Below, in pieces: positions 3,566 through 40,748 of a DNA stretch of 47,396 bases (position 1 is its first letter; each line of letters begins with the position of its first letter). The notes below the pieces were generated by a model that was not told where the DNA came from, searched no databases, and saw nothing but the letters and a program-made list of their open reading frames with translations. A program made the position numbers and the translations under genes. Source of the stretch: an uncultured Candidatus Peribacteria bacterium (lineage in GTDB: Bacteria > Patescibacteriota > Gracilibacteria > UBA1369 > UM-FILTER-41-14); assembly GCA_964386265.1 (NCBI GenBank), contig CAYLRB010000004.1:1-47396 (forward strand). Direction: 5' to 3'.

Positions 3566-4480
3566 ATGGTTTTACATGATCCACATTTTAAGGAGTTGAT
3601 TGCTCATGGTAAGGGCTGTGAACAATGGGATTCGCACCGTAAAATTACTTGGTGTGGTAACTGTGGTAATTATGGTATTCAGGCAGCTATTAAGAGGGCG
3701 TTAACCTTGGAAGGATTAGGCGTTCGTGATGTTGTATTTTGTTTTGATGTTGGTTGTAGCGGTAATGGTTCAGATAAAATTGAAGGTTATACAATACATG
3801 GTTTGCACGGACGAGTGTTAAGTTTGGCAGCAGGCGTTAAATTAGCGAATCCAAATTTAAAGGTTTTTGCTGAAGCTGGTGATGGAGCAACTTTTAGTGA
3901 GGGAGTAAATCATTTAGTTCATGCAGTACGCAATGATTATCCGGTGATTTTTTTACACCACAATAACGAGAATTATGGTCTAACGACTGGGCAACCATCG
4001 GCTTTGTCTCCTAAAGGTGCTAAGCTAAATGCAGCGCCGGAAGGTGGTGTTGCGGTTGAACCTTTAAATCCTTTAGATTTTGTTTTGAGTTTGAAGCCGA
4101 CATTTGTAGCACGTGGTTTTTCAGGAGAAGTTAACCATCTTACTGATTTGATTAGAGAAGCATTAAAGCACCCAGGGTTTGCATTTATTGATGTATTGCA
4201 AGCTTGTCCTACTTACAATCGTGAAACTCCTGATGACTGGTATTCGACTCGTGTGCGAGACGTTGCGGAGTTAGCTGGTTATGATTGTATGGATATTTGG
4301 CAAGCGCGTAGGATTGTACAAAATGAAGATGAAAAGTTTTATTTAGGTGTTTTATACAAAAATCCTCGGTCGGCAGACTTTTTTGCTGCTCAACAAGCTC
4401 ACAGAGCTGGACGGAATACAACTTCGATTGAAGAGGTTAAGGGATATGATGTATCTGATTTATTGAAAGGGCTTGTTTGA
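3566..4480 (+). CDS. 2-oxoacid:ferredoxin oxidoreductase, beta (TPP-binding) subunit
   Basis: TWCGNCGNYGI N-terminal Cys motif and the GDGATFSEGVNHL TPP-binding GDG motif. Lies 6 nt after the alpha subunit gene. Confidence 0.8.
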   Translation: MVLHDPHFKELIAHGKGCEQWDSHRKITWCGNCGNYGIQAAIKRALTLEGLGVRDVVFCFDVGCSGNGSDKIEGYTIHGLHGRVLSLAAGVKLANPNLKVFAEAGDGATFSEGVNHLVHAVRNDYPVIFLHHNNENYGLTTGQPSALSPKGAKLNAAPEGGVAVEPLNPLDFVLSLKPTFVARGFSGEVNHLTDLIREALKHPGFAFIDVLQACPTYNRETPDDWYSTRVRDVAELAGYDCMDIWQARRIVQNEDEKFYLGVLYKNPRSADFFAAQQAHRAGRNTTSIEEVKGYDVSDLLKGLV

Positions 4481-4834: not shown

Positions 4835-5746
4835 TTATGCAATAGCGGTATCACTTTTCATATATTGCAGTGAGCTGGCATGATTTACGCCGTCTGCCAT
4901 TTTGATGATTTTAACTTTGCCATCTTTGCTTGTGAAATTACCTTTGTCATCTAGTTTTCCGCCAAGACCTTCCGCGATAAGTGGAATTCCGGTCTGATTT
5001 TTTGGTATGGCTCCGTAGTAAATAGTTATACCATCTGGGTAAGCACCGTTATTCAAGTTTGCTAAAAGTGTTTCTGCTTGTTGCTTGTGACAAACTGGGT
5101 CATAAGCTTTGACTGATTTTGGTAACTTTTCTGTTAAGCTCATTAGATTTACAAAGCCATAACTGTGGCACTCTGCATCGAATTTATCTTTATTAATTTT
5201 GATTCCCAATTGTTCACTTAAGTTTGAAATTATTGCAGGAATTTGATTTATGGTTCCTCCTGACCCTTTTCCGCCATAAGGTGCAATGACAATTTGATTG
5301 CCTTTAGTTGGCATGTTTGCACTTAACTTGTTGCCAAATTCATTAAAACTAGGTGGCGTTTTTCTTGTGGCTCCATGGAAGTATAGTTTTGGCTCCGCGT
5401 TCGGATTGACGTTTGGAGGGACAAAAGCAATGTAAGGAGGTTTTGCATCAGGAAATTCCATTTTTTTGTACTCACCTACGGTTTCTTGTTCAGCTTGTTC
5501 ACTGCCGCTTTTTGGAGATTGATTGGGGCTATTGTTTATTGAGTCTAAATTTAGACCTAAGCTTTCTAAAATAGGCTTAATTCCTTTAACAAATTCTGTA
5601 AATGCCTTTGTTAAGTTTTCAAAGAATTCTGGTGACTGGAGATCTTTAAATACATCTTGTAACCTGTCTCCAAATCCCTCACCAGCAAAATTGTCGATTT
5701 CATTTTTTGGCTTTTCGGCACCTGTTTCTTTAAGATTTTTAGTCAT
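4835..5746 (-). CDS. hypothetical protein, possible alpha/beta-hydrolase-like C-terminal half
   Basis: 303 aa with a low-complexity N-terminal half. The C-terminal half has LYFHGA and ECHSYGF, a loose H-G ... x-S-x-G nucleophile-elbow pattern. Lies 4 nt downstream of the preceding ORF. The function call is weak. Confidence 0.3.
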   Translation of the reverse strand: MTKNLKETGAEKPKNEIDNFAGEGFGDRLQDVFKDLQSPEFFENLTKAFTEFVKGIKPILESLGLNLDSINNSPNQSPKSGSEQAEQETVGEYKKMEFPDAKPPYIAFVPPNVNPNAEPKLYFHGATRKTPPSFNEFGNKLSANMPTKGNQIVIAPYGGKGSGGTINQIPAIISNLSEQLGIKINKDKFDAECHSYGFVNLMSLTEKLPKSVKAYDPVCHKQQAETLLANLNNGAYPDGITIYYGAIPKNQTGIPLIAEGLGGKLDDKGNFTSKDGKVKIIKMADGVNHASSLQYMKSDTAIA

Positions 5747-6730: not shown

Positions 6731-7336
6731 TTATTGTGTAGGTGGTAGTTTACAGTATTCTACTAATTGAGCTAACTCAGGATCGGTTGTTTGACAAGTA
6801 TGAGCAGTGGAAACTCTTAATTTTGATTCAGTAGTTGGGCTGCAGGTTTTTACATTATTGTTTGGGTTTTGACCTACTGTTAAAGTGGTACAGATTTGTC
6901 TTGGCTCTGGGAAAAAGTTTTTATTCATTATTTGAACGGCACTTGTATCTATTGATAGATAACCAGCGGTATTTAATTTTGTGTACCCGATTTGCCAAAA
7001 TTGAGTTGTTGTATCAGGAGCTGGGGTAAATATACATTGAGTTGTTCCTTGCATATTTGGGTCAGCTTGTTCAAAAATAATATTTGGTTTTTTGTGTAAA
7101 ATAATGCAGTCTATGTGTGCAGTTGGAGCAATATTTTTGCAAGTGATGTCTACAGATTTGAGAGGTTCGTTGTTGAGAGTAGTACTTTCTGCTACAGCAA
7201 TACTGCAGACTCCATCTTTTATACCATTTGTTATTTGAGCAGGAATGCTCGGTTTTTGTTGTTGGCAGCCTGCTAGTAATGTACCAGCAGCTAAGATAAG
7301 GTTTAAAGATGTATTTTTTAACGTGTTTGTTGACAT
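6731..7336 (-). CDS. Cys-rich lipoprotein, unknown function
   Basis: N-terminal LILAAGTLLAGC lipobox (L-A-G-C) after a short hydrophobic segment. The mature part has nine Cys residues. Lies upstream of and co-oriented with the two ORFs above. Confidence 0.55.
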   Translation of the reverse strand: MSTNTLKNTSLNLILAAGTLLAGCQQQKPSIPAQITNGIKDGVCSIAVAESTTLNNEPLKSVDITCKNIAPTAHIDCIILHKKPNIIFEQADPNMQGTTQCIFTPAPDTTTQFWQIGYTKLNTAGYLSIDTSAVQIMNKNFFPEPRQICTTLTVGQNPNNNVKTCSPTTESKLRVSTAHTCQTTDPELAQLVEYCKLPPTQ

Positions 7337-30337: not shown

Positions 30338-31456
30338 ATGAACTTTGCTTACTTTGGCCGCCTAGCTGTTGAAAAAGGGTTTGATCAGATTATTAGTAGT
30401 TGGCTTGAATTACAAAAAAAATCTGATTTGAAAGCTGGTTTATTGGTTTTTGGAAATGGCCTTTTGGTAGAAAAGTTTTTAAATTCTGGTCTAGGTATAG
30501 TTGATTGGAGTACTAAGTCTGATGCGGATTTGCTTAATGCTAGTGTTGAAGCTGGTGAGATTTACTATGCTGGTCAGCGTAATTTTAAAGAAGTTATTAA
30601 GCCTATGTTGCAAAAGCACATTGATTATACTTTGATGCCTTCACGATATATTGAAACTTTTGGTTTAAGTGCTCTTGAGTCTTTGGGCGCTGGTGTTCCG
30701 GTTATTGGTTTTAGACATGGTGGGCTTAAAAATTTTGTTTCGGAAGATCTTGAAATTAAGTCTAGTTTACTTGAAAAAATTGAGGAACTTTTTGAGAATT
30801 CGCATAAACCAGATGTCTTGCCAATAGCAAATTTGGATTTGTTCAGCTCAGCTAGTTGGTTAAAAAAATTTAAGCAGCTTATACCGGCAGAAGCTAAAAG
30901 AATACTGCTTCTTAATGACTTTGTGGGGCAGATTGGTGGTGCAGAAATATTTGTGGACAGAGTTGTTAACTTGCTAAAAACAAATGGCTATGATGTTGAA
31001 CTACATAGCGGTTGTGAAGTAAGTGAAAAACCTTCGTGGCAGTCAATGTTAAAAGCTGTTTTTAATTTGTCAGCGTACTTTAAGCTACGAAAAAAACTCA
31101 AAAAATTTAAACCTGATGTTGTTTGGTGTCACAGTTTGATGCGCGGTTTTGGTCCGCTACCATTAGCCGCACTAGATGGTTCAACTTTTAATATTTTGAC
31201 ACACCATGATGCAGGTTTATTAATTCCCTACCCTAGTTTGTTGACTAGCGAATCTGATTTGCTTAATGGTCAAAGTAACCTTTCATTCACGAAAAAAATT
31301 GGTGGCTTTTTAAAGTCGGTTTTGTTGGTTAGAAGACTTAAAAAAAGGTTTGCTAAGTTTGATTTGCAGCTAGTGCCTAGCGAGTTTTTGCTTGAGCCAG
31401 TTGAACGATTTTTGCCAAATGTTGTGGCGGAAGTTTTACCGCATTTTGTTGATTGA
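30338..31456 (+). CDS. GT-B (GT4-like) glycosyltransferase with swapped domain order (C-domain first, N-domain second)
   Basis: aa 1-~140 match the C-terminal Rossmann domain of GT4 enzymes: FAYFGRLAVEKG, LLVFGNG, PSRYIETFGLSALESLGAGVPVIG..GGL. aa ~186-372 match the N-terminal domain: RILLLNDFVGQIGGAEIFVDRVVNLLKTNGYDVEL, KPDVVWCHS, LTHHD, VPSEF, VLPHFVD. Confidence 0.55.
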   Translation: MNFAYFGRLAVEKGFDQIISSWLELQKKSDLKAGLLVFGNGLLVEKFLNSGLGIVDWSTKSDADLLNASVEAGEIYYAGQRNFKEVIKPMLQKHIDYTLMPSRYIETFGLSALESLGAGVPVIGFRHGGLKNFVSEDLEIKSSLLEKIEELFENSHKPDVLPIANLDLFSSASWLKKFKQLIPAEAKRILLLNDFVGQIGGAEIFVDRVVNLLKTNGYDVELHSGCEVSEKPSWQSMLKAVFNLSAYFKLRKKLKKFKPDVVWCHSLMRGFGPLPLAALDGSTFNILTHHDAGLLIPYPSLLTSESDLLNGQSNLSFTKKIGGFLKSVLLVRRLKKRFAKFDLQLVPSEFLLEPVERFLPNVVAEVLPHFVD

Positions 31457-31458
31457 TA

Positions 31459-32124
31459 TTACCATTTGATGGTTGGCAGATGGTGTTTAGCTAAGTATTC
31501 GTTTGCTTTGCTAAAATGTCCACAGCCAAAAAATCCGTTGTAAGCTGAAAGTGGTGATGGGTGAGCAGCTTTTAATACAAGATGCTTGCTTTCATCAATC
31601 ACTTTGCCTTTTTCTTGTGCATAACGACCCCAAAGTAGAAAGACGACGTTTGTTTTATGTGATGAAATCGTTTCAACAATTGTATCCGTAAACTGTTCCC
31701 ATCCCTTTTTTTGATGTGAGCCTGCTTGGCCAGCTCTAACAGTTAAAGTTGCATTTAAAAGTAAAACACCTTGTTTTGCCCAATGTTCTAAATTGCCAGT
31801 TGAAGGAATGGGCTTTTTAAGATCTGTAGCAATCTCTTTGTAGATGTTTTGAAGTGAAGGTGGGATTGCAATTTTGTCATGAACAGAAAAGCATAAACCA
31901 TTTGCTTGCCCAGGCCCGTGGTACGGGTCTTGCCCAAGGATTACAACTTTTACTTGTTCAAATGGGCAAAGGTCAAGTGCGCGAAAAATCTCTTTACCAG
32001 GTGGATAGATCTTTGTTTTTTTGTACTCATCGCGGATAAATTCTGTAAGTTCACTAAAGTATGGTTTTTCAAATTCTGATTCCAATTTTTTCTGCCATGA
32101 AGGATGAATTTTGACTTGGGTCAT
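31459..32124 (-). CDS. ung: uracil-DNA glycosylase, family 1
   Basis: [22 protein letters not shown] and AAHPSPLSA motifs. The start is placed at ATG 32124 ([11 protein letters not shown]), not at the TTG-initiated track ORF ending at 32178. Confidence 0.85.
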
Positions 32125-32141
32125 GGTGGGAGTTGGAAAGG

Positions 32142-32170
32142 TTGATTGGAGTTTAGTAATTAAGTATATT
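32142..32170 (+). promoter_or_regulatory. candidate promoter of the effector/cas operon
   Basis: TTGATT (32142-32147), 17 nt, TATATT (32165-32170), ~25 nt upstream of the effector start. Such matches are common in AT-rich DNA. Confidence 0.25.
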
Positions 32171-32193
32171 ATGATCAATATAATTTTAGAATA

Positions 32194-35100
32194 TTGTCAA
32201 TGGCTATAAATAACAATTCAAATAGAGTTAAAAAATTTGAAAAAGCTGGTTACAGTATCCATTTTGATCGCTTTCGTGATATGCGATGTGACATATCGGC
32301 AATAAGAACTCACAAGTTTAAATGTAAAATCCCTAGAGGTGCAGAAAATAGCTTGTGCGAAAAATTTGAAGGTGTTGCAGGCGTGGTAGGTTCGAGTGAT
32401 AAGGGGTCTTTACTTTGGTTTCTTGTGCAGCTTTATGGGTTGGGTTTTTTATTTGTTTCAAAAGAAGGGAGTAAGAATGCTCTACTAAACAAGCTATATG
32501 GCAGAGATAGTGATGAGTTGGAAATTTCGTCAGACTACAGAGACCACATTCAAAATAAAGAAGCTTTAGCGGAGTTTCTTACTAAAAGCCCTCGCAATGT
32601 TCTTGAAGCTATAAAAGATGATCTCCTTCCCCAGTCGATAATCAAAGGCCTTGTCACGATTTTTTGTCAGAAGGAAAGCAAAATTGATACAAAGAAATTG
32701 CCGGAAAATTCAGTGTTGAAACGAGCTCATGACGGATTGTTAGATCTCGCAAGAAAGAGGAATCGATTGAGTCAAGGTGATATTCAGGAATTTTTTGGTA
32801 TCAAAATTGATGCTCAAGATACTGGTGGAACAACTTTTGTTATTCAGGAAATTCCTTTAGCAGATCTAAAAAAAAACGCTGTTGGAATTGAAATTTATGA
32901 TGCTTATTTTCGTTGTTTGCTGCCCGCATCACAAAAGACCGGTTATGATATTCAGTCGCTTGCGGGTGTTTCAGAAAATCAAAATGCTCTTTCTAACCTT
33001 TTTGGAAAATCACTAAAGGCTTTTCAAAATAGTTACGATGAGTGCAGACGTTTGTTAAGTTTCGGAAATCCTGACTATTTAAAAAAGCATCCAGAGATAT
33101 TAGATTTTCTTGCAAATGCAGTGCATCGAATTGCTCGTGATGTAAATTCATCTGCTACATCTGACTTCATTGCTGATAATTGGGGAGAATATAGAAATCT
33201 AGTGGGGGGAAGGTTACAGGGCTGGCTTTCTAACTTCCAAAATCGTTTAAAATTGTTTGAAGAAGCTCTTTCAGATGGAGTAAAAGGCGATAAAGTTGAT
33301 TCGAAAAAAGTAGCAAAAACTCATAAAGAAGTTTTTGAAGAAATAAAAAATAGCTGTGATTGGAGAAGAGTTTTTCCCCCAACACAGCGTCTAAATTTTG
33401 AGAAGTTATGTGAGTTGAGAGCTTCTCTTGCTAAGTCTTTGAAAGCGATTAAAGGAGAAATAAAATCAGAAAATAAACAAAAAGATTTCGGCACTTTGCT
33501 TAATGAATATAATGTGTATTTGCAAGGCTTCAGAGAGTTTTTAATGAAGTGGAGTAACGAGGGAATTCCGGAGAATTTTGAAGATGAAGATGGCAAAACG
33601 CATAAAATCAAAATCGAGAAATTGAAAAAGGGCGACGCCCAAATTCAAGCTGTTCCTGGAGAATTTGAGATATTTATAAATCTAACTGGCGGTGATTCAA
33701 AGAAGAAAAAATCGAAGAAAAACTTTGAGGAACAGAAAGAAGAGAAAAGTGAGAATTTAGATCAGAAGGTAATTGGCTATTGGTCAAGCTCCTTTGTTCC
33801 ATCTGTGCTAGATCGCTATCCGCGTTTTATTGGTCAGGCGCAAAAAGATCCCCAGAAAGAAATTGATAATGCTCGTAAATCTTTATTCATGATGGCTTCA
33901 GAGGCTATTCAATTTGTCAGAGAAATTCGTAAGAACAACGCAAAAGACAAAAAATTTTCTGCCGAAAAATGGCTGAAGGGAAAAAGAGGAAATGGTCACG
34001 GATTATTTCATAAGAATCTTGACACCTTGCGAGGACTGGCTTCGCGATTTGATGAAACTAAAATTGAAAAATCGCATTCATTCAAATTTCTACAAAAATT
34101 TGTCGATCCTCAAAATTCTCTTGATGATGAGCAAAATGGAAAATGGCAGAAGAAAAATTTGTCAGCAGTGAATTTTTTTGTTTCTGGTTATGAGTATCGA
34201 AACAAAAACTTTTTAGCCGCAAAAGAAGTTAGTTTCGATGATTATTTAAAAATTTTTGAAGAGCATTTTAGACTAGATAAAGTATGCTCAGAAGCTGATT
34301 TAAAAAACTGGCTCGGCTTTCAAGGTGACAACATTTCTTGGTTCACAAATGAATTCGGAGAAGTTTTAAAAATTTATCTCTCTTTGCTGCTACGTGATCT
34401 TGATAAAAAAATTGAATTACCAACTTCATTGCAAGATTTTCATGAGCTAAAGAAAACAACTTTGGCTAGTTTGTTGTTTGATGATTCAGGAAAGATGAAG
34501 TCTGGTAATGTGGATGTAGAAACGGTTCGCGGATTTTTTGCCTCAAGTATTGGCTCGGAAATTCGCAGCAAAATTTCTATTCTTTCGCGTAAAAATTACC
34601 TGAAGCGCAATGTCATCCAAATCACCAACGGCGCACAAACTTTATTGCGTTATGTTCCAATTGAGTGGGGGAATTTTGATCATCTTAGCGAGAAGTCTCG
34701 TAAAAAAATCTGTCGCAATTACATCAAACGTAAAACATATAAAACTTATTCCGGTTTTTCAGAAGAAAATTTAGAGATACTGAAAACCGAAGAAATCAAA
34801 GGCTCAACCAGCGCTGAGATTGCAGCAGCAATTTGGAAAAATTTCTCCACTCAAAATAATGATACGCAAAGAAAATTGGCGCAAATTCTTGGTGAAATGC
34901 CGCATCGCTGGGAAGTTGTTTTGAAAACAGAACAGCCAATCAACGGTCTTGATACAATTGAAAGTGGTTTGTTGTTGGAAAAGTCGAACAAAAGAAATGT
35001 CTTTAATTTCTGCTTAAAAAAAACTGGCTATCTTCACTCATTGCCAATCCAAACTTCAGTTTACCAAAAGCAGTTTCTCGATAAATTTTTATGGGGAGAT

Positions 35101-36201
35101 AAGAAAGGGGTGCTCACTGAGAAAATCATGGGAGCTAGCGTCATTATTGAACAGATCATTGATATAAAAACAGGCTTGCTGAAAAGGCCGAAAAATAGTG
35201 AAGAAAATTTTTCACTTTACTGCGCTATCCCATTCCAGTTCGCAAAAGAAGAAGGCGAAAAGAATCGATTCAAAAAAGAAGAAAAACACAGTGGCAAATA
35301 TCGACTCTCAACTAATGACCATGAAAATGTTCTTGGCATTGATCTAGGTGAATATGGTTTTGGTTGGGCGTTGTTTGATCCAGTAACTCAGAAATTTGGA
35401 AAAAAAGGTTTTGTTGAAATTCCTTTGTTACAAAAAATGCGTGATGGTGCCGCAAATTGGAAAGATGCACAAGCTAGCGGAATTTTTTCTCGTCCAACGA
35501 CTTACCTTGCTGACATTCGCGAACAAGCTGCTGGACAAATCCGCAACCAAATTCACCATTTAGCAATTACTCACAAAGCCAAACCTGTTTACGAAGATTC
35601 AGTTGATGGCTTTGAAAGTGGCGGTCAACGCGTTTCTAAGCTCTACAAAACTCTCAAAACATCTGACGTAATTTCTGGTGTTTCGAATTCAGCTGATGAA
35701 GCTGTACGTAGTCATTTTTGGGGAAATAAGTTTGTACAAATTGGCGGTGTTATTGGTGCGGCGAAGACTTCGCAGACTTGTAGAAAATGTGGCAAATGTG
35801 CTACTCATGAAGTTAGAAAACTTGAAGTAGATGAGGTTGAGATTGTGAACAAAGTGATAATAGGTTCTGGCGTTTATTGTGACTTTGAGAATGGAAAATT
35901 TTCTAAGAAGGAAGTAGAAGCCGCCGTGAAAAAAGCTCAACGTTTTGAGTCTGAAGAAGAAAAAAAAGCTCGCGAATCAGGAAAAAAATTTCGTGGAACT
36001 GTGGAGCAATTTGAGTGTCAGATGGTTGATTGTTATAATGTTACTGACGCTGATGCACAAGCTGCGCAAAACATTGCTCTGAAGTTTTACCTGAAGTCTG
36101 CTGTGACCGCGGAGGAGAAAGAATTATTTCAAACTGAGGATGGGAATTTTTCTACTTTGAGATATTTTCTAGCAAAGTCTAAGGATTTTTTAACTGAATA
36201 A
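32194..36201 (+). CDS. cas12d: type V CRISPR single effector, Cas12d (CasY)-like RuvC nuclease
   Basis: 1335 aa (TTG 32194; ATG alternative at 32200), first gene of the cas4-cas1-cas2-array operon. RuvC-I is [12 protein letters not shown] (D1050, nt 35341). RuvC-II is KPVYEDSVD (E1134, nt 35593). RuvC-III is [16 protein letters not shown] (D1285/D1287, nt 36046-36054). A Cys4 zinc ribbon (CRKC at C1196/C1199; CQMVDC at C1275/C1280) is inserted between RuvC-II and RuvC-III. No HNH domain. Several segments resemble CasY.1 as I recall it. Subtype assignment within the Cas12c/Cas12d clade is an inference. Confidence 0.85.
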
Positions 36202-36207
36202 TTTATT

Positions 36208-36771
36208 ATGCTTCCATTGTCATATGTAGCGGAGTATACATATTGTCAGCGTAGTGCTTTCTACCTATTGGTTGATACTAACTCCGTATACCGTAATGAA
36301 AATGAATACATTCAGGAGGGTAGACTTGTCCACCAGAAAATTGATATAGGCTATGCATATGCAAAAGCTGAGAGAAGGGTTGAGTCATCTTTTTTTGTAT
36401 TTTCTAAAGCATTAAATATTCTTGGGAAAATAGATTTAGTTGAATTTTTTGAAGATAAAATCGTACCAATTGAAGTAAAAAGGGGAATAAGGAGAAATAA
36501 TGAAATGCACACTGTGCAATTGATATTAGCTGCATTGTGCTTACAAGAAATGTTTCCTGCTCATCGCATTGAAAAAGGGGCAATTTTTTTTACTGGAGAT
36601 AGAAAAAGAATAGAAATTGAATTCGATGACCATTTGATACAAAAAACATTAAATTTAGTTTATGAATTGAACAAAAAAACTGATAAAATTTTAGATCCTA
36701 GAAATTTTAAGATGCAGAAAGGGAAAATCTGTCAAGGATGTTGTTTTTATGACTTGTGTCATGTGGAATAG
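36208..36771 (+). CDS. cas4: Cas4 (RecB-like nuclease with Fe-S Cys cluster)
   Basis: N-terminal YTYCQRSAFY Cys, GKIDLVE (motif II Asp), IEVKRG (ExK), QLILAAL (Q motif), C-terminal CQGCCFYDLC (C-x2-C-x5-C). Lies 6 nt after the effector stop. Confidence 0.85.
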   Translation: MLPLSYVAEYTYCQRSAFYLLVDTNSVYRNENEYIQEGRLVHQKIDIGYAYAKAERRVESSFFVFSKALNILGKIDLVEFFEDKIVPIEVKRGIRRNNEMHTVQLILAALCLQEMFPAHRIEKGAIFFTGDRKRIEIEFDDHLIQKTLNLVYELNKKTDKILDPRNFKMQKGKICQGCCFYDLCHVE

Positions 36772-36809
36772 TATTGTATATTTGTATCTTTGTGTTTCTA
36801 ATCTATAAA

Positions 36810-37799
36810 ATGACTTATTTAGTCGAGAGGCCAACATTGTTTGTTGTTGCAAGAAAAAATGATGTCATTGAGAAATATGGTGAAAATATTAGAATTCGCA
36901 ATTCAAATACAGCTGAACTTAGGAAGAAAGTACCAGCAATACATGTCAGAGATATTGTTGTTTGTGGTGATATAAATATTGATTCGACTGTGATTGTGCT
37001 TGCCGAAAAATACTCTATTCCAATTCACTTTTTAAGTAATGGCGGAAAATTCAGGGCATCAATCTACTTTGATTTTTCGAAAAATGTTTTTTTGAGATCA
37101 AAACAATTTGAAATGGCGAATAATATTAAAACAAAAGTAGATTTAGCTATTAACTTTGTTCAAGCCAAAATTTATAATCAAAATATCGCTTTGAGAAAAA
37201 TTAGAGCAAAAGGAAGGCTAAAGCCTAATTTGAATAAGATCATTGATTTAAATGTGTTAAGAGGTGTTGAAGGTGCATCTGCACAAAAGTATTTTTCAAT
37301 TTGGAAAATCGAAAGTGTAATTAAAAACAAAAATTTTAAATTCCAAGGTCGCTTTAAACGACCCGCTACGGATGAAGTAAATGCACTACTATCATTTTGT
37401 TTTTCACTATTGCATAGTGAGATACATACACAACTTATGATTGCTGGCTTGGATCCCTTTGTTGGTTTTTTGCACGAGCAATCATTTGGTCACTCTGCAT
37501 TAGCTAGCGACTTTTTAGAGACTTTTAGAGGTCCGGTTGAACACTTTGTTTGGAAGACTTTGAATCGAAAAGAATTTGATAAATCAGAGGATTTTGAGCG
37601 AGATGTAAGAAATGGTACAGTGCAGCTCTCAACAAAAGGGTTTAAGAAGTTTTTTCCTAAATGGACTAAATTTTTAAGAACTGACGAATTAAACCTTGGT
37701 TATAATTTAACTAGATTAATTGAAATTGATATTAGAAGTTTTGTCCATTTTTTAATGGGTGACAAAGAAGAACATACTCCATTTAAATGGCAAATATGA
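36810..37799 (+). CDS. cas1: Cas1 integrase
   Basis: The start is placed at ATG 36810 (MTYLVERPTLFVV); the GTG-initiated extension from 36756 overlaps cas4. LRGVEGASAQKYF (catalytic Glu region), NALLSFCFSLLHSE, GLDPFVGFLHEQSFGHSALASDFLETFR (His and acidic residues of the Cas1 active site). Confidence 0.85.
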   Translation: MTYLVERPTLFVVARKNDVIEKYGENIRIRNSNTAELRKKVPAIHVRDIVVCGDINIDSTVIVLAEKYSIPIHFLSNGGKFRASIYFDFSKNVFLRSKQFEMANNIKTKVDLAINFVQAKIYNQNIALRKIRAKGRLKPNLNKIIDLNVLRGVEGASAQKYFSIWKIESVIKNKNFKFQGRFKRPATDEVNALLSFCFSLLHSEIHTQLMIAGLDPFVGFLHEQSFGHSALASDFLETFRGPVEHFVWKTLNRKEFDKSEDFERDVRNGTVQLSTKGFKKFFPKWTKFLRTDELNLGYNLTRLIEIDIRSFVHFLMGDKEEHTPFKWQI

Positions 37800-38089
37800 G
37801 GGAGAGATTTTTTGTGATATACGATTTTGTTAGTGATAGTAGACGCGCAAAATTTGCGAAAATTTTAGAGAAATATGGTATAAGAATTCAGTATTCGGTA
37901 TTTGAATTCTCTTTAACTAAAGCTAGAAAAACAGAGCTGTTTGCAAAGATGAAACAAAATGATTTTTTGCGTAATAATAGACAAGAGTCAATAATGATAT
38001 TGCCAATTTCAAATGAATTTTTACGAAAAATCGAGAGATATGGTGATACAACTGATATATTTGATCAAGCTGGTATATTCTTAGTTTGA
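37787..38089 (+). CDS. cas2: Cas2
   Basis: FVIYDFVSDSRRAKFAKILEKYGIRIQYSVFEFSL is the classic Cas2 N-terminal beta-alpha-beta with catalytic Asp. The likely real start is ATG 37796, forming an ATGA overlap with the cas1 stop. Confidence 0.85.
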   Translation: MANMRERFFVIYDFVSDSRRAKFAKILEKYGIRIQYSVFEFSLTKARKTELFAKMKQNDFLRNNRQESIMILPISNEFLRKIERYGDTTDIFDQAGIFLV

Positions 38090-38423
38090 CTTTTTTACTA
38101 TTGTTTTATATCTTGTTTATGGTTCTTTAAATTTTGTTTCAACCACCTTTTAGATTTATTTAAAGGGGAAATGACACATTATTGAAGGATTGGCTTAGAT
38201 TCTAAACTGCCAATTATTTGGTTATTGATGCAAATGATTGGTTGTTTGGAATTAAAAGCGCCTATTCTAAGGATTTATCTTTATTTAAAGGTAATATACA
38301 GCTCTTTACGCGGAACAGAGGTTTGCATGATGTATTTGTTTGTCATATGGTAATGCTTGAAAATGTTTACATCAGACTGAATAAGACAAACCTTTTATTG
38401 ATCTTTTACAAGCTGTTTATGGA
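38090..38423 (+). other. CRISPR leader / non-coding region between cas2 and repeat 1
   Basis: 334 nt, AT-rich, with no credible ORF (the 75-aa track ORF runs into repeat 1). Contains promoter-like TTGCAT-17 nt-TATGGT (38323-38351) about 70 nt upstream of repeat 1. Confidence 0.6.
38189..38241 (+). ncRNA. candidate anti-repeat (tracrRNA/scoutRNA-like) element
   Basis: 38189-38199 ATTGGCTTAGA is the exact reverse complement of repeat nt 2-12. 38222-38230 TTATTGATG is the exact reverse complement of repeat nt 14-22. The two blocks lie in two alternative hairpins (38189-38214; 38210-38241). Transcript ends and strand are unknown. Confidence 0.3.
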
Positions 38424-39374
38424 GTCTAAGCCAATTCATCAATAAGCAAGTCATAGAAACCTATAAATGTACAAGGTGGATGGGCTATCATTGGTCTAAG
38501 CCAATTCATCAATAAGCAAGTCATAGAAACTGCCGTAGTAATACCCTTTTTCCCTTAACATCGTCTAAGCCAATTCATCAATAAGCAAGTCATAGAAACC
38601 TTTACTTTAATTCCAACAACTACTTAACATGGGTCTAAGCCAATTCATCAATAAGCAAGTCATAGAAACATGCGGCTTCGCTTTTTTGACGCAAAAGTTC
38701 CTCAGTCTAAGCCAATTCATCAATAAGCAAGTCATAGAAACATTGTTGAGACAAAGACCTTAATTCACCTACGGCAGTCTAAGCCAATTCATCAATAAGC
38801 AAGTCATAGAAACTACAATTATTATATAACTAAGCTCAGAAAGCTTGTCTAAGCCAATTCATCAATAAGCAAGTCATAGAAACATTAGCTGAAATACTAT
38901 TAGGTTTAATCACAAATGTCTAAGCCAATTCATCAATAAGCAAGTCATAGAAACATTAGCTTCTTCACGGTTGAGGACATGGTTTTTGTCTAAGCCAATT
39001 CATCAATAAGCAAGTCATAGAAACGTATGATAGGGTTACATTCATCATCTAACCCCACAGTCTAAGCCAATTCATCAATAAGCAAGTCATAGAAACTTAA
39101 AATACCGTCAGACGTTGAAACGCCTGGTCTAAGCCAATTCATCAATAAGCAAGTCATAGAAACTGGTCCTCTAACTGCTTAACGATCCGCTGAAAGTCTA
39201 AGCCAATTCATCAATAAGCAAGTCATAGAAACATTGAAGACGCGGAGGCCCTACTTCTCGATATAGTCTAAGCCAATTCATCAATAAGCAAGTCATAGAA
39301 ACCAGGAAGAGAAAGCTCTTTGTATCAAGCGGCCTTGGTCTAAGCCAATTCATCAATAAGCAAGTCATAGAAAC
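38424..39374 (+). CRISPR. CRISPR array, 14 identical 37-nt repeats and 13 spacers (30-35 nt)
   Basis: Repeat is GTCTAAGCCAATTCATCAATAAGCAAGTCATAGAAAC. Repeat starts are 38424, 38494, 38563, 38633, 38705, 38777, 38847, 38918, 38988, 39060, 39127, 39196, 39266 and 39338. Spacers 1-7: ctataaatgtacaaggtggatgggctatcattg; tgccgtagtaataccctttttcccttaacatc; ctttactttaattccaacaactacttaacatgg; atgcggcttcgcttttttgacgcaaaagttcctca; attgttgagacaaagaccttaattcacctacggca; tacaattattatataactaagctcagaaagctt; attagctgaaatactattaggtttaatcacaaat. Spacers 8-13: attagcttcttcacggttgaggacatggttttt; gtatgatagggttacattcatcatctaaccccaca; ttaaaataccgtcagacgttgaaacgcctg; tggtcctctaactgcttaacgatccgctgaaa; attgaagacgcggaggccctacttctcgatata; caggaagagaaagctctttgtatcaagcggccttg. 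The strand is tentative: co-oriented with the cas genes and the repeat ends in GAAAC. Confidence 0.97.
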
Positions 39375-39429
39375 ACTTTGATCAACTGAATAGATGATGT
39401 GTAATTTATTAGGTTCTTAATTTTAATAA

Positions 39430-39462
39430 ATAAAAAAAGATGAAAACTTGCATCTTCATCTT
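39430..39462 (-). terminator. intrinsic terminator of tRNA-Asn
   Basis: On the minus strand, AAGATGAA-GATGCAAGTT-TTCATCTT (8-bp stem, 10-nt loop, 39437-39462) is followed by TTTTTTTATTTATT. It starts 4 nt after the tRNA CCA end. Confidence 0.65.
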
Positions 39463-39465
39463 GAA

Positions 39466-39540
39466 TGGCTCCCCGAGTTGGGCTCGAACCAACGACCTAC
39501 CGGTTAACAGCCGGTTGCTCTACCACTGAGCTATCGGGGA
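39466..39540 (-). tRNA. tRNA-Asn (anticodon GTT), CCA encoded
   Basis: Minus strand reads TCCCCGA-TA-GCTC-AGTGGTA-GAGC-A-ACCGG-CTGTTAA-CCGGT-AGGTC-GTTGG-TTCGAGC-CCAAC-TCGGGGA-G-CCA. This is a canonical cloverleaf with 7/4/5/5-bp stems, a TTCGAGC T-loop and anticodon loop CT-GTT-AA. Confidence 0.93.
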
Positions 39541-40748
39541 ATGTGGAGTTTGAATTTTAGTACTTCTCTTCCGACAATTTGTTGTGGACGAATGTATACT
39601 AAGCTTTGTTCATTCAAAGCCGCCTTAATATAGCCAAGTGCTTCAATCTTTTCAACAGTATTTTTCAAAAAATATAATTTACCTTCCATATATGATTCTG
39701 GGCTTGTTCTAAAGACAGGTAAACTAATTACGATTTCAGTGTTTTCGTTGATAACGCTTTTTAGGCTTTTAAAAAAGGAAACGTAAATTTTATCAATGTT
39801 GTCAAAGTTTTCTATGGAGCCGGGATGAGTGGGGTTGATAGCATGGTGCATAAGTTTGCCAAGATAGCCTTCGCTGACAATAGCATCTACTTTTTTCCAA
39901 TCGACTTGCGCATCTGCAATTTTTATAGCGTCTTGTTCAAAGATTTGGCAACTAAGTTCTGGTTTTAGTTGTTGTTTGAACTTTTGTTTTAGCCAGTCTA
40001 AGTTTAGCTGACTATCTTCAATTGCTTTTGGGTCAAGGTCGCTGCCGATTACGTTTAAGTTCATTAGCAGGCCTTCCATTAGAACTGTACCGATTCCACA
40101 GAACGGATCGTATACTGTACTGCCATCTTTTACCTGAGCTAGATTTAGTAAAGTTTGCGCTAATTTTGGCGGAAACATACCGCGTTGCATGTCACGAGCT
40201 GGTTTTTGATAGTCCCGAAAGCTGTAACTGTTTAAGTCTTGGAGACCAACAGTTTTAGTGATGAAAATTTTGTCTAATATTTTAATAACTTGAATAAGGT
40301 CGATTTTATTTTGTTTCCAGCCTTGATCGTATAGATAGGCAGTGTGGCAGTTTTTGTTGTTTTTGTTTAAAAACCTTACTTTGCCTTCGCCTTCTTGTTC
40401 TTTGGCAATTTTTTTCAACTTAAGCAAAACTTGCTGTTTTACCTTGGGGTGCGCCATGTGTTCAGGCAAATAGTTGACGGCGTATTGTCTTTTGATTGTG
40501 GTTTTTTGAATTTTTTGTACTATTGTGTCTGGGTTTCTGCAGTCTTGAAAATTTGTAATCGTATCAATGATTTTAGAAATTGCAGGTATGCTACCAATTT
40601 TATCGAGCCAAGTTTGATTTAATTCAACTTCTGTCTCGAGCATGACCCATTCTTCATAATGATCAATAATCTTGCAGTCTGGCAAAGTTGCTTGCAGTTC
40701 GGCAATTGCAAATTCAGGTTGGCGACCACATTGAACTAAATATTGCAT
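39531..40748 (-). CDS. SAM-dependent RNA methyltransferase (UPF0020/Trm11-RlmL-like, putative guanine-N2)
   Basis: VYDPFCGIGTVLMEG (motif I, DPFCGSGT type) followed by VIGSDLD (motif II acidic residue). The N-terminal ~190 aa may be an RNA-binding module. The last 10 nt, including the stop, overlap the 5' end of tRNA-Asn. Confidence 0.55.
   Translation of the reverse strand: MQYLVQCGRQPEFAIAELQATLPDCKIIDHYEEWVMLETEVELNQTWLDKIGSIPAISKIIDTITNFQDCRNPDTIVQKIQKTTIKRQYAVNYLPEHMAHPKVKQQVLLKLKKIAKEQEGEGKVRFLNKNNKNCHTAYLYDQGWKQNKIDLIQVIKILDKIFITKTVGLQDLNSYSFRDYQKPARDMQRGMFPPKLAQTLLNLAQVKDGSTVYDPFCGIGTVLMEGLLMNLNVIGSDLDPKAIEDSQLNLDWLKQKFKQQLKPELSCQIFEQDAIKIADAQVDWKKVDAIVSEGYLGKLMHHAINPTHPGSIENFDNIDKIYVSFFKSLKSVINENTEIVISLPVFRTSPESYMEGKLYFLKNTVEKIEALGYIKAALNEQSLVYIRPQQIVGREVLKFKLHIPR

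Follow-up and report, generated by a model that had tools for sequence, protein, structure and literature searches.

The 334-nucleotide (nt) gap between cas2 and the CRISPR (clustered regularly interspaced short palindromic repeat) array on contig CAYLRB010000004.1 of an uncultured Candidatus Peribacteria bacterium (assembly GCA_964386265.1) very probably encodes a trans-acting guide-helper RNA of ~130 nt for the Cas12d-like effector of the same locus. As read from its sequence, this RNA would be a hybrid of a trans-activating CRISPR RNA (tracrRNA) and an untranslated RNA of short complementarity (scoutRNA), and the case for it comes from a comparison of related loci in which its conservation, co-variation, terminators, and position could be followed. 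All coordinates refer to the whole 47,396-nt stretch that was analyzed, here called the window. The original prediction, made from the letters of this stretch, had taken the gap to be the source of a trans RNA that serves an effector of the Cas12c/d type, and this core idea is strongly supported: the effector passes the cut-off of the Cas12d model, and the anti-repeat of the RNA co-varies with the repeat.

Predicted anatomy of the RNA and its contacts with the repeat

In the mechanism that we propose, the helper RNA would be transcribed from a promoter overlapping the cas2 stop codon, would end at an intrinsic terminator, and would bind each repeat of the plus-strand precursor CRISPR RNA (pre-crRNA) through three contacts. 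The dock, GUUUC, formed by the last 5 loop nt of hairpin H1 at the 3' edge of the loop, would pair with the GAAAC that ends the repeat next to the spacer; the middle anti-repeat, AUGAC, located beyond a second hairpin, H2, would pair with repeat nt 27-31 (GUCAU); and a 22-nt collinear anti-repeat would pair with repeat nt 1-22 in a duplex containing one A.A mismatch and two G.U pairs. Jointly, the three contacts cover 32 of the 37 repeat nt, and a linker of 9 nt separates the long anti-repeat from the terminator. The repeat itself has no hairpin of its own (folding energy, 0 kcal/mol), as had been observed from the outset, and the helper RNA would supply in trans a second strand for it. The Cas12d-like protein would then bind the composite scaffold, for maturation and DNA targeting, and would presumably require it for activity; as to the processing route, the 22-base-pair (bp) duplex would be long enough to serve as a substrate of host ribonuclease III (RNase III).

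Scored with RNAduplex, the gap pairs with the repeat, through AUGAC and the long anti-repeat, at -32.7 kcal/mol, an energy that none of 1000 shuffled gaps reached (-19.0 +/- 2.8 kcal/mol; z -5.0), and the best of 546 tiles of 334 nt elsewhere in the window gave -26.4 kcal/mol. When the gap RNA of every locus was paired in turn with each of the 12 repeats available from the window and its relatives, the lowest-energy partner was the RNA's own repeat in 10 of the 12 loci, with the window RNA at -32.7 kcal/mol versus -24.6 for its next best partner. The exceptions are locus L011, which is in a near tie with its sister locus L009, and the distant locus L024, which fails this test.

Conservation of the element in related loci

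A search for homologues of the effector returned 13 clusters among 5.8 billion, 37-64% identical, and a profile search added 2 more; the contigs of these relatives were fetched, and further loci were taken from genome and metagenome scans. No relatives were found in viral contigs. Where the sequence reaches far enough, the usual gene order is cas12, sometimes an extra gene, cas4-cas1-cas2, the gap, and the array. The repeats of the relatives are 37 nt long, and their ending, GAAAC, is invariant in 12 loci. A profile of the gap used with nhmmer matches a homologous region in 12 distinct loci, the window copy extending over 38087-38249, while loci L022, L024, L030, L031, and L032 were added via a covariance model of H1, a motif scan, or by eye. 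The loop of H1, CUUUAAAUUUUGUUUC, is nearly invariant between loci, whereas the arms differ. At the place of H2, 13 of 15 loci have a hairpin with z <= -2.3 and unrelated sequence. Each of the 12 loci folded has a terminal hairpin 3' of the anti-repeat, its last 80 nt folding at -14.7 to -24.9 kcal/mol, with T-runs visible after these hairpins in the sequences of the related loci. In an Rfam scan of 31000-40000, nothing overlapped the cas2-array gap at E values up to 1; the matches obtained were a transfer RNA (tRNA) and two sub-threshold matches at 39367-39540.

Two of the loci depart from the usual arrangement. In L022, a Peribacteria-labelled contig (1-680 and 6868-6990), the helper-RNA gene directly follows the effector gene, without cas4, cas1, and cas2 behind it, and the array lies ~6 kb away on the opposite strand; dock and anti-repeat are kept nonetheless. 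In L024, the helper-RNA element is located on the side of the array away from cas2. As a separate observation, a sequence judged by eye to be tRNA-like follows the helper-RNA gene of L022.

A subclade comprising L015, L026, and L031 carries a second H1-like hairpin, GCCAT-TTTAAATTTAGTTTT-GTGGC, ~70 nt upstream of the cas12 start (L015, 2522-2552; L026, 680-710; L031, 653-683), found with the H1 covariance model at 17.6 bits. This hairpin could be a mimic, in the 5' untranslated region of cas12, of the effector-binding hairpin, for instance for autoregulation. In the window, the space in front of cas12 measures only 16 nt.

Co-variation of the paired positions

For the counting of pairs over the four helices (H1, dock, middle anti-repeat, and long anti-repeat), composites were built in which hand-aligned H1 segments, the motif-aligned middle anti-repeat, and the MAFFT columns for the long anti-repeat were joined to the repeats, with segments padded by N; counts were made over 17 rows and also over 12 rows, and those given here are for 17. 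MAFFT columns for the middle anti-repeat had been inconsistent between loci and were replaced by the alignment on its sequence motif. Standard pairs occupy 86.4% of the cells, compared with 66.6 +/- 1.3% when partners were shuffled between the sequences (0 of 500 shuffles reached the observed value) and 33-47% when partners were slid by 1-3 columns. In H1, all five pairs are changed on both sides across the loci, with 90.6% of cells paired; in the middle anti-repeat, all five are compensatory, with 93.8% of cells paired, as seen in the repeat/anti-repeat combinations GTCGT/ACGAC, GTCAT/ATGAC, GTTAT/ATAAC, and TTCTT/AAGAA; and in the long anti-repeat, 19 of 22 pairs are changed on both sides. 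For the dock, 95.7% of cells are paired and three of five pairs are changed on both sides, including a compensatory change in L022, where GUUUG accompanies a sense repeat that ends in CAAAC.

Relationship to known guide RNAs

The scoutRNA of type V-D Cas12d (CasY) reportedly goes back to Harrington et al. 2020. That Cas12c and Cas12d depend on a trans RNA whose gene is close to the array is already known, and the effector of the window falls within the Cas12d model. For KbCas12d (CasY.1), the published scoutRNA1 is aaaggguuuccaguuuuuaacuaaacuuuagccuuccacccuuu and the repeat of the CRISPR RNA (crRNA) is cuccgaaaguaucggggauaaaggc (bioRxiv 10.1101/2023.12.12.571249); our comparison with CasY.1 uses this one published sequence set. 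The CasY.1 scoutRNA has a closing stem, AAAGGGU/ACCCUUU, and a GCCUU near the 3' arm that complements the repeat end AAGGC, and the 5' half of the CasY.1 repeat folds into its own hairpin, CUCCGA/UCGGGG, 3 nt before the anchor. H1 with its dock corresponds to the core of the published Cas12d scoutRNA. The RNA predicted here shares with it a location beside the array of a V-D-like locus (with RNA and array oriented alike in the window), a closing stem, and a loop with a 5-nt dock at its 3' edge that complements the final 5 repeat nt, which agrees with the 3-5-nt dock to the repeat 3' end by which scoutRNAs are recognized, and it likewise accompanies an effector above the Cas12d cut-off. In L031 (~6865-6912), the loop of H1 holds an inserted inner hairpin, TGGTGAC-TTAG-GTCATCA, before the dock, as in CasY.1 and in stem 2 of Cas12c.

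There are also differences from the V-D scoutRNA. The window RNA adds 27 anti-repeat nt (5 + 22) and so lacks the restriction to short complementarity that characterizes scoutRNAs; at the level of sequence, its features are those of a tracrRNA, with an anti-repeat that is complementary to the cognate repeat and is kept so by co-variation. The canonical V-D locus is described as having cas1, repeats of ~26 nt, and spacers of 17-19 nt (bioRxiv 10.1101/2023.12.12.571249), whereas the window has cas4-cas1-cas2, repeats of 37 nt, and spacers of 30-35 nt, and its effector belongs to a distinct, rare subfamily that scores, at ~370 bits, moderately above the cut-off. Because these repeats, spacers, and adaptation genes do not agree with the described V-D locus, we classify the locus, judging by its sequence, as type V with a Cas12d-like effector and not as canonical V-D. 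The repeat of CasY.1 (25-26 nt) carries a hairpin in its 5' half, and the window repeat has none; here, the matching helix would be made in trans, by AUGAC/GUCAU located 1 nt before the anchor, and would be followed by the 22-bp duplex. The two RNAs of the window thereby resemble an engineered CasY.1 single guide split open at the hairpin loop.

Cas12c offers a second point of comparison, as its tracrRNA forms three short repeat:anti-repeat duplexes, and its dock, 4 nt located directly 5' of the 3' arm of the closing stem, pairs with the last 4 repeat nt, positions -4 to -1 (PMC9522604; PMC9723637). The tracrRNAs of V-C Cas12c1 and Cas12c2 and the window RNA have in common several separate repeat:anti-repeat duplexes, 1-2 unpaired repeat nt between the duplexes (PMC9723637; PMC9522604), and a terminal dock before the 3' arm of the closing stem. 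In Cas12c, however, the duplexes are 4-8 bp long, non-collinear, and confined to the last 18-21 repeat nt, whereas in the window the two upstream contacts run collinearly as far as the repeat's 5' end, and the window protein matches the Cas12c model weakly (79.6 bits). The tracrRNAs of type II Cas9, V-B, and V-E systems are similar in being trans RNAs with an anti-repeat of ~20 bp followed by their own terminator. They differ in that the long duplex of the window takes up the repeat's 5' two-thirds, at a distance from the spacer, and contact close to the spacer is made by a 5-bp helix together with a 5-nt loop dock, as in V-C and V-D. A long duplex suits RNase III in type II and V-B (PMC9522604; PMC11246509), and Cas12c trims pre-crRNA with its own RuvC site (PMC9522604). 

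In the literature covered, the Cas12d guide is described only as "crRNA plus scoutRNA," and no variant of the kind proposed here is indicated in the titles and abstract openings, an incomplete share of the literature naming both scoutRNA and Cas12d. The comparison yields a model of the guide at the level of base pairs for a rare Cas12d-like subfamily (16 protein clusters in all among the 5.8 billion), in which one RNA would combine a scoutRNA core with a long anti-repeat, and it offers a concrete explanation, open to testing, of the relationship between scoutRNAs and tracrRNAs. With more doubt than belief, we raise the idea that tracrRNA-dependent and scoutRNA-dependent type V systems have their missing link in this clade, the hairpin of the CasY repeat and the trans helix of the window being the same element in cis and in trans. 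If true, scoutRNAs would be tracrRNAs that lost the anti-repeat once the repeat had taken over that strand, or the reverse would hold. The 22-bp duplex would then make this Cas12d-like system dependent on RNase III, unlike Cas12c and Cas12d. The results also have practical implications for nuclease testing, as they name the strand and the ~130 nt to synthesize and suggest a fusion of helper RNA and crRNA into a single guide; on the missing-link reading, the comparative model would amount to a direct single-guide design for an uncharacterized group of nucleases with 30-35-nt spacers.

Alternative explanations and points against the proposed RNA

The reading closest to the original prediction is an RNA of ~75 nt (~38170-38250), started from TTGTTT-17-TATTTA (38134-38162), in which two anti-repeat blocks in swapped order sit in mutually exclusive hairpins that act as a conformational switch; we consider this unlikely. 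Several of its elements are sound. Block 1, ATTGGCTTAGA (38189-38199), matches the reverse complement of repeat nt 2-12 without a mismatch, and the window contains it one time outside the array, with 0.05 occurrences expected; block 2, TTATTGATG (38222-38230), matches that of repeat nt 14-22 just as exactly; both hairpins fold better than shuffled sequences; and non-collinear anti-repeats do exist in Cas12c (PMC9723637). Block 1 is a real anti-repeat, but its extent had been drawn too short, as it forms the core of the 22-nt collinear anti-repeat at 38179-38200. Block 2 did not hold up in this role. Among the 10 other loci with a known repeat, exact anti-repeat words of at least 8 nt occur in the RNA body only and in no terminator loop (0/10), and the 9-mer alone had rightly been called marginal, with 1.16 occurrences expected window-wide and unrelated matches at 4185 and 15254. 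As repeat nt 16-22 already have a collinear partner in TTATTGA, immediately 5' of block 1, block 2 is probably incidental; the -32.7 kcal/mol duplex is collinear, and the swapped, bipartite pairing that had been proposed is not needed. Of the two hairpins, the first (38189-38214) folds (-5.5 kcal/mol; z -2.3) but is not conserved, and the second (38210-38241) folds as described (-10.4 kcal/mol; z -4.0) but is to be identified as the terminator. They do share 38210-38214, yet their mutual exclusion amounts to a terminator plus a fold-back of the anti-repeat onto the following 30 nt, which reaches significance in the window (z -3.2), is borderline in L007 (z -2.0), and is missing from 12 of 14 loci. 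The promoter hexamers are likewise present, but they are located inside the conserved H1 loop and H2 and were not called by the promoter scan. Finally, the conserved element measures ~130 nt, and the shorter RNA would leave out the middle anti-repeat and H1 with its dock, the most conserved part. Independently of these points, the target of the fold-back in the window is a repeat-like sense copy, CTAAACTGCCAAT (38203-38214), that overlaps the foot of the terminator; the fold-back could be a lineage-specific masking of the anti-repeat or could be due to chance.

We also regard it as improbable that the element works in cis, either as the 3' untranslated region of the messenger RNA of the cas operon or as the read-through 5' part of the pre-crRNA, pairing mainly with the first repeat or regulating transcription of the array. 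The weak window terminator, with its AT-rich stem and its tail UUGUUUGG, the modest promoter match, and the placement of RNA and array on one strand only ~175 nt apart would all suit such a role, but in the other loci the anti-repeat is succeeded by strong terminators that are GC-rich and carry U-runs, dock and anti-repeat are retained in L022 despite the distance and the change of strand, the array of L024 separates the element from cas2, and action in trans is established for the related RNAs of Cas12c and Cas12d (bioRxiv 10.1101/2023.12.12.571249; PMC9522604). Very little credence is given to a third explanation, in which the region is a DNA-level leader element, such as an integration or regulator binding site, and the anti-repeat is a decayed inverted copy of the repeat without function as RNA. 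The region does adjoin the leader, and leaders carry conserved motifs, e.g., GGTTTGCA at 38320-38327. However, compensatory changes preserve the helices of H1, H2, and the terminator as well as the complementarity of each RNA to its own repeat; only one of the strands tolerates G.U pairs, an indication of RNA; and the L022 element is located away from the leader.

A trans-acting helper RNA is thus the reading that we favor, and a number of observations weigh against it or weaken parts of it. The promoter-like TTGACT-17-TATCTT has 9 of 12 consensus matches and is weak, and in the promoter scan such sites were no more numerous in the region than in shuffled sequence. Its TTGAC is aligned in 6 of the 8 loci of alignment A1, L009 and L011 being without it at that spot, and we infer that 38086-38114 may function as the promoter of the helper RNA. 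The terminator of the window is AT-rich with an imperfect U-tail and was not called by a simple terminator scan. The covariance model of H1, R1, matches 38118-38147 at only 22.9 bits; a second match, at 40295-40325 on the plus strand with 22.3 bits, was rejected as chance, as it runs antisense in a methyltransferase open reading frame (ORF; 39531-40748) and no anti-repeat or terminator was found near it, and it shows that, at such a score, the H1 model lacks specificity when used by itself. H1 and the middle anti-repeat were aligned by hand, which biases them toward pairing, and RNAalifold, when given the 12 RNAs as plainly aligned by MAFFT, returned no paired positions; hand-aligned segments were used because insertions and deletions in the loop and in H2 break the register of a plain alignment. 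Co-variation of the dock comes from two cases, L022 and the published CasY.1, set against an anchor that is invariant in 12 loci, and two docks are deviant, with GUAUU in L005 pairing at 4 of 5 positions and GAAUC in L007 at 3 of 5. Lastly, no credible protospacers for the 13 spacers were found in phage and plasmid collections.

Effector, array, and neighboring genes

The features of the locus are collected in Table 1. The effector scores 374.8 bits against NF033951, the equivalog model of Cas12d/CasY with a cut-off of 250, and thereby falls within that family model; the match spans residues 72-1301 of the protein and positions 72-1179 of the 1180 of the model. Five relatives that were tested score 353-384 bits. 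Residues D1048, E1132, and D1285 are invariant in 14 homologues and, as read from the surrounding motifs, would be the RuvC domain's catalytic residues. In a sequence search of solved structures, the sole match was Cas12c2 (7v93), over the C-terminal residues 1045-1176 (E 6.5e-7), and the structures covered in this way yielded no Cas12d chain. The source records of the effector relatives held no informative names.

Table 1. Coordinates of the CRISPR locus and of the predicted helper RNA in the window
Feature	Position	Strand	Basis or remark
Cas12d-like effector, 1335 amino acids	32194-36201	+	NCBIfam NF033951 match
cas4	36208-36771	+	Pfam Cas_Cas4 E 3.6e-18; TIGR00372 99.4 bits
cas1	36756-37799	+	Pfam Cas_Cas1 E 2.5e-66
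cas2	37787-38089	+	Pfam CRISPR_Cas2 E 1.8e-14
Promoter-like TTGACT (38086-38091), 17 nt, TATCTT (38109-38114), overlapping the cas2 stop codon	38086-38114	+	Promoter scan
Predicted tracrRNA/scoutRNA-type helper RNA, ~130 nt, with putative ends	38120-38249	+	nhmmer homology
Hairpin H1, arms 38120-38124 / 38141-38145, loop CUUUAAAUUUUGUUUC	38120-38145	+	Co-variation
Dock GUUUC	38136-38140	+	
Hairpin H2, sequence-variable	38146-38168	+	-6.8 kcal/mol, z -2.3
Middle anti-repeat AUGAC	38171-38175	+	
Long collinear anti-repeat TTATTGA-A-GGATTGGCTTAGAT	38179-38200	+	RNAduplex
Intrinsic terminator, stem 38210-38220 / 38231-38241, tail UUGUUUGG	38210-38249	+	-10.4 kcal/mol, z -4.0
CRISPR leader with conserved GGTTTGCA (38320-38327)	38250-38423	+	Alignment A1
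CRISPR array, 14 identical 37-nt repeats GTCTAAGCCAATTCATCAATAAGCAAGTCATAGAAAC, 13 spacers of 30-35 nt	38424-39374	+	Repeat finder

The array would be read on the plus strand, because the complementarity joins transcripts of the same strand and the terminator fixes the strand of the helper RNA. In L005 and L024, a degenerate repeat is located at the end of the array farthest from the helper-RNA element, which fits a leader on the helper-RNA side. The conserved leader motif GGTTTGCA precedes the first repeat by ~100 nt and is thereby placed between the helper-RNA terminator and the array, and similar motifs share its alignment columns in L002, L005, L008, L009, L011, L015, and L020; it could belong to the promoter of the array or serve in leader recognition. 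Two copies of a 30-nt direct repeat, 73% identical, occupy 38093-38122 and 38393-38422; each ends in GTTTATGG, directly before hairpin H1 in one case and directly before the first repeat of the array in the other. The similarity may have arisen by chance, the sequence being AT-rich, or may reflect the duplication of an upstream element. An ORF of 75 amino acids (38218-38445) extends into the first repeat.

Around the CRISPR locus, a uracil-DNA glycosylase gene (31459-32178, minus strand) ends 16 nt before the cas12 start, a tRNA-Asn(GTT) gene (39466-39540, minus strand) lies 92 nt beyond the last repeat, and a DNA methyltransferase-like gene (39531-40748, minus strand) flanks the locus. The wider neighbors are ordinary chromosomal genes, e.g., those for ribonucleotide reductase, pyruvate:ferredoxin oxidoreductase, and adenylosuccinate lyase. 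Among the relatives, an extra gene (Abi_2-like, NYN-domain, or DUF3800) lies between cas12 and cas4 in L001/L002 (L002, ~4915-5520), L004 (4312-4791), L005 (9174-9866), and L007 (2979-3629), and the adaptation module is inverted relative to cas12 in L005 and L007. Prophage-like genes, including those for an ERF recombinase and a terminase among others, start ~280 nt past the array in L009 (17176-24041) and L010 (7232-14097).

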